Assembly: GCA_965215945.1 (NCBI GenBank)
Contig: CBDCFC010000047.1
Location: 20,643 to 84,642 of the forward strand
From: Arenicellales bacterium
GTDB taxonomy: Bacteria > Pseudomonadota > Gammaproteobacteria > Arenicellales > JAHEKD01
DNA: 64,000 nt
Direction: 5' to 3'
Below the pieces are notes generated by a model. That model made no database searches. It was not told the DNA's origin and worked only from the letters and a program-made list of their open reading frames with translations. Of this stretch, positions 6,569-9,284 are shown in pieces. Each line of letters begins with the position of its first letter. The stretch's first letter is position 1. Both the position numbers and the translations under genes were made by a program.

Positions 6569-6584
6569 TGTGATTTTTATCACA
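6569..6584. promoter_or_regulatory. Perfect CRP-type palindrome TGTGA-N6-TCACA
   Basis: The sequence is TGTGATTTTTATCACA in the intergenic region, about 140 bp upstream of the first gene of the island operon. An extra TGTGA half-site lies at 6591. Confidence 0.45.
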
Positions 6585-6724
6585 GAATGTTGTGATGCCA
6601 TTGATTATCATCGCGTCGTTTTATTTCTGAACAAAACCTAATAATTTAACTTGACTGGGGTAGGTCGATGTTGATAATACCCCCCCCCAATACATTAATT
6701 TATTTTAATAGACAAGGTTTGACA

Positions 6725-7060
6725 ATGAAAAAAAGATTGCTAGCGGTGTTCATGGTGCTATCTAGTTTAAGTGTGCATGCCGATGTTTGGACACCTTATG
6801 TTTCTATTAGTCGATTTAAAAGTTACACACATAGCGATAACTTTTATGTGTTATCCGCAACCACATTGAGTGTGCCCGGTTGTTCGGACGCACAATGGTT
6901 GTATTTTAGAATTGATGAAAAAAATGGACAAACTGCCAGTCGGCTCAAGCAAGCGAAAGTGGTTGCTTTAGCCGCTCAAATGTCGGACAAGAAAATTAGG
7001 GCCTATGGTGATTGTTTTAATGCAAGTACATTTGAGGTCCATAGCTTTGACATTATGTGA
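6725..7060 (+). CDS. Small secreted protein of unknown function
   Basis: The start was trimmed to MKKRLLAVFMVLSSLSVHA/DV, a Sec signal peptide with an AxA-like cleavage site. The mature part has two Cys residues. It is the first gene of a tightly spaced same-strand cluster. Confidence 0.55.
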   Translation: MKKRLLAVFMVLSSLSVHADVWTPYVSISRFKSYTHSDNFYVLSATTLSVPGCSDAQWLYFRIDEKNGQTASRLKQAKVVALAAQMSDKKIRAYGDCFNASTFEVHSFDIM

Positions 7061-7084
7061 CGGGTCGAAGCGAGTTTGTACCCG

Positions 7085-7510
7085 ATGAAAAACTTACTAC
7101 GCATCCTTAGTATTTACCTGTTAGGAGTGTCGACAATTAATGCTGCAGATTCACTGCACGGTGCTAGCAATATTGTATTGTTACAGGCGGCTTGTCCTAC
7201 TGCCTGGGAAAAAGTCGACAAAGTATATGCAAAGCCGTCGTCCGTGCCCTGGGCGAATGAAACCGACCGGCAAAAGAACCTTGAATTTCAACGTAATTTT
7301 ATCTTGCAACAAACCAAGACCGGCTCACGGGATACAGATTCCGTCAGCCGGGATGTGATCACGGTATTAAGTGAATGTGTCAAACGCCATAATCTGGTGG
7401 TGCGGGCGGAATTCAATAAAACGATTGGTAAATTACCGGAGCTGAAAGAGCGTGTGGATATTACCCAGATTTTAATGCTGTTACTGTTGGATGATTCAGA
7501 TGAGAATTAA
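7085..7510 (+). CDS. Secreted protein of unknown function
   Basis: The start was trimmed to MKNLLRILSIYLLGVSTINA/AD (signal peptide). Its end overlaps the next gene. Confidence 0.55.
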   Translation: MKNLLRILSIYLLGVSTINAADSLHGASNIVLLQAACPTAWEKVDKVYAKPSSVPWANETDRQKNLEFQRNFILQQTKTGSRDTDSVSRDVITVLSECVKRHNLVVRAEFNKTIGKLPELKERVDITQILMLLLLDDSDEN

Positions 7511-7514
7511 TTAC

Positions 7515-7877
7515 ATGAATAAGGTGGGTTGTTTGGCGTTAACAGTGCTGTTAGGTGCCTGCGGCGGTGGGGGTTCAAGTAGTGGCGGTAGCAGTGCCGA
7601 TACCGATGTGACCCGCTGTATTCGTGCCGAATCTGTCGCTACGAATATAGATGTTTTCACCAGTAAAGCGCGATATACCAACACCTGCGATTTTGCCGTG
7701 AGTCTGGCTTACCGGACGGTTACCATAACAGTAGCAGGCCCAGTGACGGTAATACCGGGTGGTATGCATGAGGATTTGCTGGGTCGAATCGGTGCGGGCG
7801 AATTTATTGCTTGTCGCCCGCCGTCGCAGGGCACGAACAAAGGGGATTTGCCCAATCCAGAATTGGGCTGTACCTGA
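7515..7877 (+). CDS. Lipoprotein of unknown function
   Basis: MNKVGCLALTVLLGAC has the lipobox LGAC and is followed by a Gly/Ser linker (GGGGSSSGGSS). Confidence 0.6.
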   Translation: MNKVGCLALTVLLGACGGGGSSSGGSSADTDVTRCIRAESVATNIDVFTSKARYTNTCDFAVSLAYRTVTITVAGPVTVIPGGMHEDLLGRIGAGEFIACRPPSQGTNKGDLPNPELGCT

Positions 7878-7908
7878 TGATTATCGATGTAAAGTGAGTA
7901 CGGATTAA

Positions 7909-8472
7909 ATGAAAATAAAACTGTTAGTCATTATTTTAGCGGGTGCGTTTGTTGTTGCTAGTTCGTATTACGGGTGGCAAGCGAAACGGACCACTAAGGG
8001 TGCATTGGTACTCGATCAAAAGCATCAATATCTCGTTCGAACAACAGCAACTAATTCATCAGATGAAGACCGTTCAGTCACAGCGAAACCTGAACCTGAA
8101 ATTAAAAGCGATTTGGTCCAAAGTGGTACGGCCGAGTCATCCCTAGCAGAATTACCCATCGAACAGCGCAGCGAAAAACCGATCGATCACACGAGATACA
8201 AAGCCCAACACGCCTTGCCTGAAATACAGCCAGTCACGATGCCCAGTTCTGTGACGATGGCAAATTCACTGACATTGACGCAAATCAAAGCCCTTGACGT
8301 GGAGGATTTATCGCCGCCGACGATGATGAAAGGCGATGCATCCGGTGAAATCTCATCTGTAGGCGGTGCGTATTCAACCGATTCGGCTTATGAGGCACCA
8401 CTTAAAGTGATTGATTCGGTAAGCCGTCAAAGCGGAATTCCCGCCGCTGATTTGCAACAGGCTTTTGATTGA
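7909..8472 (+). CDS. N-terminally membrane-anchored protein, predicted to be largely disordered
   Basis: It has an N-terminal hydrophobic segment (KLLVIILAGAFVVASSYY), and the rest is low-complexity and Ser/Thr/Glu/Pro-rich. Its stop overlaps the next ORF. Confidence 0.5.
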   Translation: MKIKLLVIILAGAFVVASSYYGWQAKRTTKGALVLDQKHQYLVRTTATNSSDEDRSVTAKPEPEIKSDLVQSGTAESSLAELPIEQRSEKPIDHTRYKAQHALPEIQPVTMPSSVTMANSLTLTQIKALDVEDLSPPTMMKGDASGEISSVGGAYSTDSAYEAPLKVIDSVSRQSGIPAADLQQAFD

Positions 8473-8486
8473 GGGTTGATAAGCGT

Positions 8487-9284
8487 ATGAATAGGCAAGT
8501 GATGGCTAAAAACAAGTTCAAACAATTGGGTCTGGTGCTGATGTTGTGTGGTGGTGTGTTACCAATTCAGGCCCAAGATGAGGTTGAAGCGCCTCCATTG
8601 CCGGAGCTACTGGACTTAGAGGGGTTAGAACAGCACGAACTCACACAATCAATAGAAATTGATGAGCAGACGATGTCGTTCCCGGAAGAAGGGATCACGA
8701 TCATAGATTTGCCTGAGGAATCATCCATGAGCGAAGCGGAATCAATCCCGGAAGATCTTTTTGAAGACATCCCACCGCCTGTGCTTGAAGATGATGAGGT
8801 GGTTGTCAAAGAACCTGAACCCACCTTTGAAGATTTACTCACCCCTGAGATTCAGCAAACCGAAGCGGTGAAGGCCATTCAAAAAACACGCAAGGCGCGT
8901 AAAAAAGCACTGAAATCCTTAAATGATGACATTGAGCGATTAAGCTTACGCCAGGAAGTCTTTTCATTAAAACAGCAACACGCACAGCTAAAGTTGGAGC
9001 AAGTGAGTGCCCGTGCTGAAAAACTGGACTTAAAGCGCAGTGAGGTCGAAGAGAAGCTAGCCGACCCGGACATCACGCCGGAGAAACGTGAAGAACTTGA
9101 AGCACGTTTAGCCCGAATCATTGAACGTGAGACACGTGTTCAGGACAAATTGCTCAAACTTGAAACCAAGATCGAAAAACTAGCGAAAAATCTGGACAAA
9201 GCCCAATCCAAGCTCCTGGCCTTGGGCGGCGTGATCCCTGATGAGGAGAACGACTCCTCAACAGAGGAAAGCCCACAAGGTTGA
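8487..9284 (+). CDS. Secreted acidic / coiled-coil protein
   Basis: It has a signal peptide (LGLVLMLCGGVLPIQA/QDE), a very acidic Glu/Asp/Pro/Leu-rich region, and then a Lys/Glu/Leu-rich heptad-like C-terminus. The start choice (8487 versus 8469 or 8502) is uncertain. Confidence 0.5.
   Translation: MNRQVMAKNKFKQLGLVLMLCGGVLPIQAQDEVEAPPLPELLDLEGLEQHELTQSIEIDEQTMSFPEEGITIIDLPEESSMSEAESIPEDLFEDIPPPVLEDDEVVVKEPEPTFEDLLTPEIQQTEAVKAIQKTRKARKKALKSLNDDIERLSLRQEVFSLKQQHAQLKLEQVSARAEKLDLKRSEVEEKLADPDITPEKREELEARLARIIERETRVQDKLLKLETKIEKLAKNLDKAQSKLLALGGVIPDEENDSSTEESPQG

Follow-up and report, generated by a model that had tools for sequence, protein, structure and literature searches.

We understand Rhs and YD-shell toxins well where a type VI secretion system (T6SS) or TcA delivers them. 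For the large class of Rhs proteins that carry only a Sec signal and a TcB-like SpvB/propeller region, we know of no exit from the Gram-negative cell and of no entry into the target. How could such a toxin be exported and delivered? The question is raised by a locus in a stretch of 64,000 nucleotides (nt) from an Arenicellales bacterium (contig CBDCFC010000047.1, positions 20,643 to 84,642; the whole stretch is called the window below). Here, an Rhs gene of this class is preceded by five small open reading frames (ORFs), o1 to o5, which we call the cassette. The genes are the following.

o1: 6725-7060, plus strand, ORF of 111 amino acids
o2: 7085-7510, plus strand, ORF of 141 amino acids
o3: 7515-7877, plus strand, ORF of 120 amino acids
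o4: 7909-8472, plus strand, ORF of 187 amino acids
o5: 8487-9284, plus strand, ORF of 265 amino acids; the ORF opens at TTG 8469
Rhs toxin gene: 9365-17854, plus strand, 2829 amino acids, with signal peptide, SpvB, FG-GAP propeller, TcdB mid-N, RHS repeats, Rhs core, glycine-zipper region and variable tip
Presumed immunity gene: 17857-18207, plus strand, a 116-amino-acid lipoprotein-like ORF directly 3' of the Rhs gene, assigned by position alone

The arrangement is as an earlier note, made from the DNA letters, had described it. The five ORFs lie on the same strand with tight junctions (the o2 stop at 7510 is followed by the o3 start at 7515, and the o4 stop at 8472 overlaps the ORF of o5), and the Rhs gene begins 80 nt past o5. 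Homologues exist elsewhere for all five, and o1 to o5 are therefore real genes; the reading of them as chance ORFs was ruled out on this evidence. Exact copies of o1, o2, o4 and o5 were found as called proteins in a public collection (P0005, P0050, P0004 and P0001, respectively). Exact-sequence look-up of o3, o4, P0001 and P0003, a homologue of o5, returned no contig on record.

The Rhs protein begins with a signal peptide as judged by simple rules (three Lys or Arg residues, a hydrophobic core at residues 13-24 and cleavage between VFA and QS). Its orthologues at two related loci (L001 and L011, see below) have equivalent N-termini. SpvB scored 31.7 bits (cut-off 22), FG-GAP_3 37.5 and TcdB_toxin_midN 32.1; RHS_repeat was matched with E = 2e-20 and Rhs_assc_core with 60 bits. 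Zhang et al. (2012; PMC3482391) defined a 'TcdB/TcaC' trafficking class by a signal peptide followed by SpvB, propeller and RHS, and TcdB itself is the sole component named for this class in their trafficking-mode table. The window protein has the make-up of such a toxin, with a signal peptide, SpvB and an FG-GAP propeller, and RHS repeats, core and a variable tip. It resembles TcdB/TcaC-type toxins in this architecture, in its variable C-terminal toxin, and in the immunity-like ORFs and orphan modules that go with it, but differs from them in being accompanied by a cassette of small exported proteins.

The DNA around each reachable relative of the cassette was fetched, and all o2 loci with at least 3 kb of context were counted (n = 8, window included). 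In 8/8 of these loci (the window, L001, L004, L005, L007, L009, L010 and L011), o2 adjoins a gene for a protein with signal peptide, SpvB, FG-GAP and RHS. The Rhs orthologues of the other seven loci are 34-57% identical. The loci, together with two on short contigs, are organized as follows.

L004 (ENA contig): o1-o2-o3-o4-o5-Rhs, in the order of the window; identities of 24, 68, 51, 35 and 43% for o1 to o5 and of 53-56% for Rhs
L001 (Arenicellales metagenome-assembled genome): two small secreted proteins, Rhs (57% identity), a 205-amino-acid ORF (putative immunity), o2 (70%), a non-homologous lipoprotein, o4 (32%) and o5 (47%)
L005 (ENA contig): Rhs, two ORFs, o3, o2, o4 and o5, with frameshifts in a 1.9x assembly
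L011 (ENA contig): small secreted proteins, o2 and then a further small secreted protein upstream of an Rhs gene of 2698 amino acids, and a second o2 copy downstream
L009 (NCBI assembly, 64% GC): an SpvB/FG-GAP Rhs N-terminus divergent from o2, o4 with its C-terminal motif, and an o5 analogue (signal peptide, Pro-rich, coiled coil)
L007 and L010 (ENA contigs): o2 head to head with Rhs; the L010 Rhs gene is interrupted by insertion sequence (IS) elements
L006 and L008 (short contigs): too short to show Rhs; o2 beside an anchor protein or a coiled-coil protein

Thus checked, the co-occurrence of cassette and toxin holds for o2 and largely holds for o4 and o5, while o1 and o3 are less constant. 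Beside this type of Rhs gene, o4 and o5 were seen in four to five loci and o3 in three (with orthologues in L004 and L005); in L001 a different, non-homologous lipoprotein occupies the o3 slot. Small o1-like secreted proteins with two Cys residues sit just upstream of Rhs in four loci. A homologue of o2 (P0052) and the o5 homologue P0003 each come from a contig of 11,594 bp, probably one and the same. Among the loci with context, none had its o2 homologue apart from an Rhs gene. A contig scan of genomes yielded one true relative, L001 (L002 and L003 were distant FG-GAP matches and were left out). Neither of two metagenome scans, one with o2/o4/o5 patterns and one with motifs of an insertion in the Rhs shell, gave a match, nor did scans of viral contigs and of plasmids.

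Two further features of L011 may be recorded here. In the regions 9252-10916 and 20384-20579, two o2 paralogues flank the Rhs gene, and in the upstream copy a basic C-terminal extension of about 50 amino acids replaces the hydrophobic tail. The locus also holds three different small secreted two-Cys proteins.

The position of the cassette relative to Rhs is not fixed: the window and L004 have it upstream, L001 and L005 have it downstream, and at L007, L009 and L010 the two are divergent. Because the gene order varies in this way, the association points to a functional unit and not merely to a shared operon. The linked loci lie in unrelated neighbourhoods of 41 to 64% GC. Since the flanking genes differ at each locus, and the copy in the window lies on an island at a tRNA-Arg gene, the unit moves together. 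The same observations could be read in another way. The cassette might have a function of its own in the envelope, such as that of an adhesin or a maintenance set, and merely share mobile islands with Rhs genes; the variable gene order, the IS elements and integrase remnant on the window island, and the location of L010, also in a mobile region, would all agree with such a passenger. Against this speaks the adjacency itself, which is found at all eight loci in different neighbourhoods and at o2 identities from 31 to 70%. Moreover, some loci pair just o2 and Rhs, head to head, o2 was not seen apart from Rhs, and o2 and the Rhs shell diverge in parallel. We consider a mere passenger role unlikely.

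The parallel divergence is apparent from the identities of o2 and Rhs, respectively, which are 70 and 57% in L001, 68 and 56% in L004, 62 and 57% in L011, 41 and 36% in L010, 38 and 34% in L007, and 31 and 36% in L009. By these comparisons, divergence of the cassette tracks the Rhs shell, that is the delivery part, and not the toxin tip. Between the window and L001, the similarity of the Rhs proteins ends after residue ~2440-2700, and the toxin tips differ. The cassette is conserved where the tips differ, which argues that it has no tip-specific immunity role.

Two regions of the Rhs protein stand out next to these comparisons. Residues ~2440-2700 (window 16690-17500), past the core motif DPSGY, consist of a Lys-rich amphipathic helix followed by a glycine-zipper region of about 250 amino acids. 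The glycine-zipper region is also encoded at 18475-19400 and 24000-24800 and precedes variable tips. The main gene, both orphan modules and L001, L005, L010 and L011 all keep it, and it could be a domain for membrane entry that they have in common. The second region is an insertion of about 650 amino acids in the RHS shell (residues ~1450-2100; window 13700-15700). It contains Cys residues and is partly coiled, and L001, L004 and L011 conserve it, with stretches such as YAGVWQCKKIG and NPANDTGRYA. A scan of the whole protein with E up to 0.1 found no Pfam domain in it.

A toxin that is exported by Sec crosses the periplasm of its own producer, and the cassette could accordingly serve for self-protection, for example by keeping the gate of the Rhs cocoon shut, or by neutralizing the Lys-rich helix and the glycine-zipper region, until release. 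Like the cassette, the glycine-zipper region is conserved (in the main gene, in the orphan modules and at further loci), and the cassette stays constant while the tip varies. Yet each Rhs toxin module is already trailed by small ORFs that are, by position, putative tip-specific immunity genes (the one directly behind the main gene, 17857-18207, matched no family). Also, four different exported proteins exceed the number in known immunity systems, and none resembles any immunity family in Pfam, NCBIfam or PADLOC. We therefore hold a shielding function to be very unlikely.

What do the five proteins look like? The earlier note had assigned an export signal to each, and our rule-based reading of the N-termini (n-region, h-core, cleavage motif) agrees. 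It had also recognized none of the families, and this held in our searches of Pfam, NCBIfam, PHROGs and PADLOC, in which no family passed the threshold. For o2, o3 and o4 there was no family at all, for o1 there was a sub-threshold match to DUF5992, and matches of o5 to SMC, Rad50, JetC and LmuB were dismissed as coiled-coil noise. A HMMER scan of 1.84 billion representatives gave about 10 clusters for o2, about 30 for o3 and one further relative each for o1 and o4. Profile searches among 5.8 billion proteins gave 29 clusters for o2 and only 3 for o5. A word-indexed search with concatenated o1, o2 and o3 gave no match; this was a false negative, as the profile later found the exact o2 copy P0050 and 28 relatives. 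The proteins of the window itself are singletons in the protein collection, where they come from a contig of 169.7 kb, which indicates that the host lineage is poorly sampled, and its housekeeping proteins have no genes in common with the fetched loci. Judged from these searches, o2, o3, o4 and o5 are at least four new protein families.

o1 is a small, predicted secreted protein with two Cys residues and a signal peptide of n-region, h-core and cleavage between VHA and D. DUF5992 (Pfam PF19454) matched it over nearly its full length with 16.8 bits (cut-off 23.8; E = 0.007) but matched none of seven other o1-like proteins. o1 might thus be a member of a divergent DUF5992-like family, on a weak match below threshold. 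Its homologues are P0045 and the product of L004 6694-7020. A transitive chain of weak matches ties o1 loosely to the small secreted proteins that precede Rhs in L001 and L011, and since nothing but this chain joins the o1-like proteins, we do not claim that they form one family; BLAST found no direct similarity between o1 and those of L001.

o2 has a signal peptide (cleavage between INA and A) and a predicted secreted mature part of about 120 amino acids, with a conserved Cys pair (C37 and C98) and a hydrophobic C-terminal helix. Residues W56, D61, D90, V94, E97 and C98 are invariant. An AlphaFold model built on the family alignment is all-helical with a predicted local distance difference test score (pLDDT) of 73. 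Foldseek found no fold match for it in PDB, the only structure library searched, and no PDB sequence profile matched.

In o3, the lipobox LLGA is followed by Cys16, with Gly and not Asp at position +2, and next by the linker GGGGSSSGG. Cys16 and the Gly/Ser linker do not vary among 30 members of the family, of which most read L-[STA]-[AG]-C, as expected of a lipoprotein. The family comprises about 30 clusters at 50% identity. The domain of about 85 amino acids has four Cys residues and was modelled (AlphaFold, family alignment) as an eight-stranded beta-sandwich with pLDDT 82.5. Foldseek against PDB gave merely generic, weak Ig-like or tendamistat-like matches, and PDB sequence profiles gave lipoprotein-signal matches and nothing more.

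The sole hydrophobic stretch of o4 is residues 1-19, and its homologues are without a good cleavage site, which points to an N-terminal anchor. A low-complexity linker leads to the conserved C-terminal motif VIDSVSRQSGIPAADLQQAFD, which is retained in L001, L004, L005, the o4 homologue P0009 and the 64%-GC locus L009. In o5, a signal peptide (cleavage between IQA and Q) is followed by an acidic, Pro-rich region, a EPEPTFEDLLTPEIQQT motif and about 130 amino acids of coiled coil. Analogues of o5, with signal peptide and coiled coil, adjoin o2 in L008 and L009.

Upstream of o1, the window contains the following candidate control elements.

CRP-type palindrome TGTGATTTTTATCACA: 6569-6584, a perfect TGTGA-N6-TCACA
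Extended conserved site ATTGTGAT-N6-CACAGAATG: 6567-6589
-10-like hexamer TATCAT: 6606-6611, plus strand, 21 nt past the CRP-type site, read from the sequence
Sigma-70-like promoter TTGACT-16-GATAAT (10/12): 6651-6678, plus strand, a second possible promoter, 47 nt before o1

The palindrome, which the earlier note had placed ~140 bp ahead of the first gene, lies 141 nt before the o1 ATG. Perfect TGTGA-N6-TCACA words occur twice in the 64-kb window, compared with 0.08 expected, and 0/100 shuffles contained at least two. The same 8+N6+9 word, ATTGTGAT-N6-CACAGAATG, is found upstream of o1 in L004 (6420-6442), with flanks identical to those of the window site and one mismatch in the right half-site; none of 300 shuffles reproduced this match. 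A global alignment of the two upstream regions did not align the shared site, whereas the word-based test did. L004 also has a TAnnnT hexamer at the same 21-nt offset (TAGTCT, 6459-6464). A -35-region word, AATTTAACTTGAC, is common to the window and L004 (6548-6560) and is not significant alone. The palindrome at 6569-6584 is probably a real operator. Its spacing suggests class II CRP geometry, with the centre at ~-41.5 and a start near 6618; a further start is predicted near 6685. The site resembles class II CRP promoters such as galP1 in being perfect, with a -10-like hexamer 21 nt downstream and no -35 element, an arrangement kept in L004; it differs from them in that a second, sigma-70-like promoter lies further downstream in the window, and a role of CRP is here read from the DNA. 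A class I geometry relative to the sigma-70-like promoter was dropped, as the site centres of ~-108 and ~-160 are non-canonical. No terminator-like site is present on the plus strand in the 80-nt gap between o5 and Rhs, and co-transcription of cassette and Rhs is plausible.

The second perfect CRP-type site of the window, ATTGTGACTTTTCTCACAGAA, is at 53425, after an ammonium-transporter gene, and has the same flanks as the first. A TAAGGT hexamer (53462-53467) lies 21 nt downstream of it, followed at 53529-53558 by a terminator hairpin of 13 bp plus a T tract. The predicted transcript of about 90 nt has a folding z of -2.7 and no Rfam match. This arrangement (53425-53565) suggests a CRP-dependent small transcript of about 90 nt.

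How might the cassette act? With a probability of roughly 55%, we propose that it is an envelope accessory module, a tether or hand-over device for a Sec-exported, TcB/TcC-like Rhs protein, with o2 as the direct adaptor. That four of the five genes recur beside one kind of Rhs gene, over at least seven other uncultured bacteria, suggests that they are probably dedicated helpers of the toxin. After Sec export, the Rhs cocoon of ~300 kDa would fold in the periplasm. The partner that is universal and best conserved, o2, would be a periplasmic, disulfide-bonded helical protein that binds the conserved N-terminal SpvB/propeller part as adaptor or gatekeeper. o4, with its conserved C-terminal peptide, would be anchored in the inner membrane, the periplasmic coiled coil of o5 would have the length to bridge the periplasm, and o3 would be a lipoprotein of the outer membrane; together, o4, o5 and o3 would tether the cocoon at the envelope or hand it over, so that it is exposed on the surface or released. 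Cassette and Rhs of the window, like those of L004, would probably form one transcription unit with a CRP-type class II promoter plus a sigma-70-like promoter. We infer this mechanism because the fold search (Foldseek, PDB) gave no informative match.

The earlier note had suggested that the five proteins are an export, anchoring or presentation set for the toxin. This is supported in part: linkage to Rhs, whose absence would have spoken against it, was seen for o2 and largely for o4 and o5, and the role in export, anchoring or presentation is still an inference. Several points weigh against the proposed envelope module. Its function is drawn from genomic association alone. No beta-barrel, secretin, ATPase or known chaperone is predicted among o1 to o5, and no way across the outer membrane is visible for a folded shell of 300 kDa; above all, no member of the set resembles an outer-membrane channel or a source of energy. 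Fold and sequence searches of o2 and o3 gave no informative relative, and the pLDDT of 73 gives the o2 model only moderate confidence. o2 is the sole constant partner: L007 showed no o3, o4 or o5, and in L010 none was seen over 10 kb on one side. With 8 informative loci, the sample is small; several of these stem from ENA assembly batches that are related, all are uncultured, and the linkage was read in one direction, from o2 to Rhs. The o3 family, with its ~30 clusters, is larger than the o2 family, and linkage was counted at the fetched loci only. As to regulation, the claim of cyclic AMP-CRP-type control gains from the site and spacing being kept in L004, but the site is absent from L001, L005 and L007, which have other gene orders, and no crp gene was seen in the window, where none of the ORFs scanned encodes a cNMP-binding or HTH_Crp protein. 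A bolder form of the proposal, in which o2, o4, o5 and the o3 lipoprotein make up a new envelope apparatus, either a route of the Rhs shell to the surface or to release or a TcA-independent docking and gating device, is tentative, and we think it rather doubtful.

Comparison with Tc (ABC) complexes raises the remaining alternative. The SpvB/propeller/TcdB mid-N/RHS cocoon of the window protein matches a TcB-TcC fusion, but the window has no TcA gene among the ORFs scanned, and the Rhs protein bears a Sec signal peptide, which TcB and TcC are not known to have. The earlier note had found no T6SS, TcA or two-partner secretion partner for the toxin, and we likewise found none in the window ORFs scanned. 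Pfam scans of 36 of these ORFs, most of them of at least 150 amino acids, contained no TcA-type domain, no TcA was present among the called genes of L004, L010 and L011, and neither the ORFs nor the Rhs protein contained a PAAR domain. In Tc toxins, the SpvB/propeller/TcdB mid-N module serves to dock on TcA. The cassette could thus replace TcA and act on the side of the target: released with the cocoon, it would dock on the propeller gate, bind the target and open the cocoon, with oligomeric o5 as conduit or spacer. The Rhs protein does retain the docking module in the absence of a TcA-like gene in the window ORFs scanned and in related loci, o2 is more conserved than the Rhs shell, and all cassette proteins are predicted to be exported. 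However, o3 is a lipoprotein and o4 is membrane-anchored, and both therefore point to residence in the envelope of the producer and not to release; nothing in the cassette resembles a receptor-binding or pore-forming domain, and its total size is tiny compared with TcA. We regard delivery at the target as improbable. The presence of immunity-like ORFs and orphan tips suggests interbacterial competition rather than toxicity to insects.

The nearest functional precedent is MafA/MafB of Neisseria, in which a polymorphic toxin that depends on Sec also requires, for passage to the surface, an outer-membrane protein that is dedicated to it and encoded on the island (PMC7738311). The two systems share an island, orphan modules, a Sec-dependent toxin and a dedicated exported protein encoded just upstream (MafA). 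The likeness is functional and positional only: for the MafA family, Pfam/NCBIfam gave no match to o2, o3 or o4 and only noise for o1 and o5. Maf relies on a single outer-membrane protein; the cassette has four or five small proteins, of which none is an obvious outer-membrane channel, and its cargo would be an Rhs shell of ~300 kDa. The cassette is also reminiscent of the Rhs adaptors of T6SS (Eag/DUF1795, DUF4123, VgrG/PAAR), which are likewise small conserved neighbours that follow the N-terminal delivery module and not the tip. These adaptors and chaperones are cytoplasmic and serve the T6SS. By contrast, o1 to o5 all have export signals, and no T6SS gene or PAAR was found in the ORFs scanned.

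The cassette proteins are concrete candidates for the missing export or delivery step of Sec-signal Rhs toxins across distant lineages. The Rhs island is an element of a known kind; the conserved, unannotated accessory cassette is new. The predicted, conserved CRP-type class II promoter suggests that a competition weapon responds to nutrient status. The reach of these statements is limited by the fact that the examples are all from uncultured bacteria and that the family is very rare (29 o2 clusters in 5.8 billion proteins).

The cassette and Rhs gene open a genomic island of ~20 kb integrated at tRNA-Arg, with the following landmarks.

tRNA-Arg(ACG), left island end (attL): 5815-5891, plus strand, found with ARAGORN and Rfam
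Orphan Rhs C-terminal modules with small downstream ORFs: 18475-25656, plus strand
Integrase remnant (C-terminal): 20497-20784, Phage_integrase with E = 3e-16
IS110 transposase: 21149-22162, minus strand
48-bp direct repeat of the 3' part of tRNA-Arg, right island end (attR): 25786-25833, plus strand, a sequence repeat

The tRNA gene and the direct repeat of its 3' part are as expected of a tRNA-integrated island; of the integrase, a C-terminal remnant is all that is present. A 955-amino-acid Rhs 3' fragment also lies in the island behind the main Rhs gene. Outside the island are genes for fumarase, a Fic protein, the signal recognition particle (SRP) RNA, dnaX and recR, and beyond these the gammaproteobacterial gene block nnr-amiB-mutL ... 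hflX-hflK, an order that indicates a gammaproteobacterium as host.

Some minor observations were made in the surroundings of the island. Right after attR, at 25908-26000, there are five tandem copies of the 20-bp unit CTCTACAATATTAACGGGGG. At 3446-5891, tRNA-Arg genes TCG and ACG flank a Fic-domain gene of 507 amino acids on the minus strand, and a second Fic/DUF4172 gene is located at 47029-48138. Two IS110-family transposase genes, 30012-31079 and 54072-55139, are apparently identical (same Pfam scores, same tblastn matches), and the IS110 gene of the island, 21149-22162, is a third and different one.

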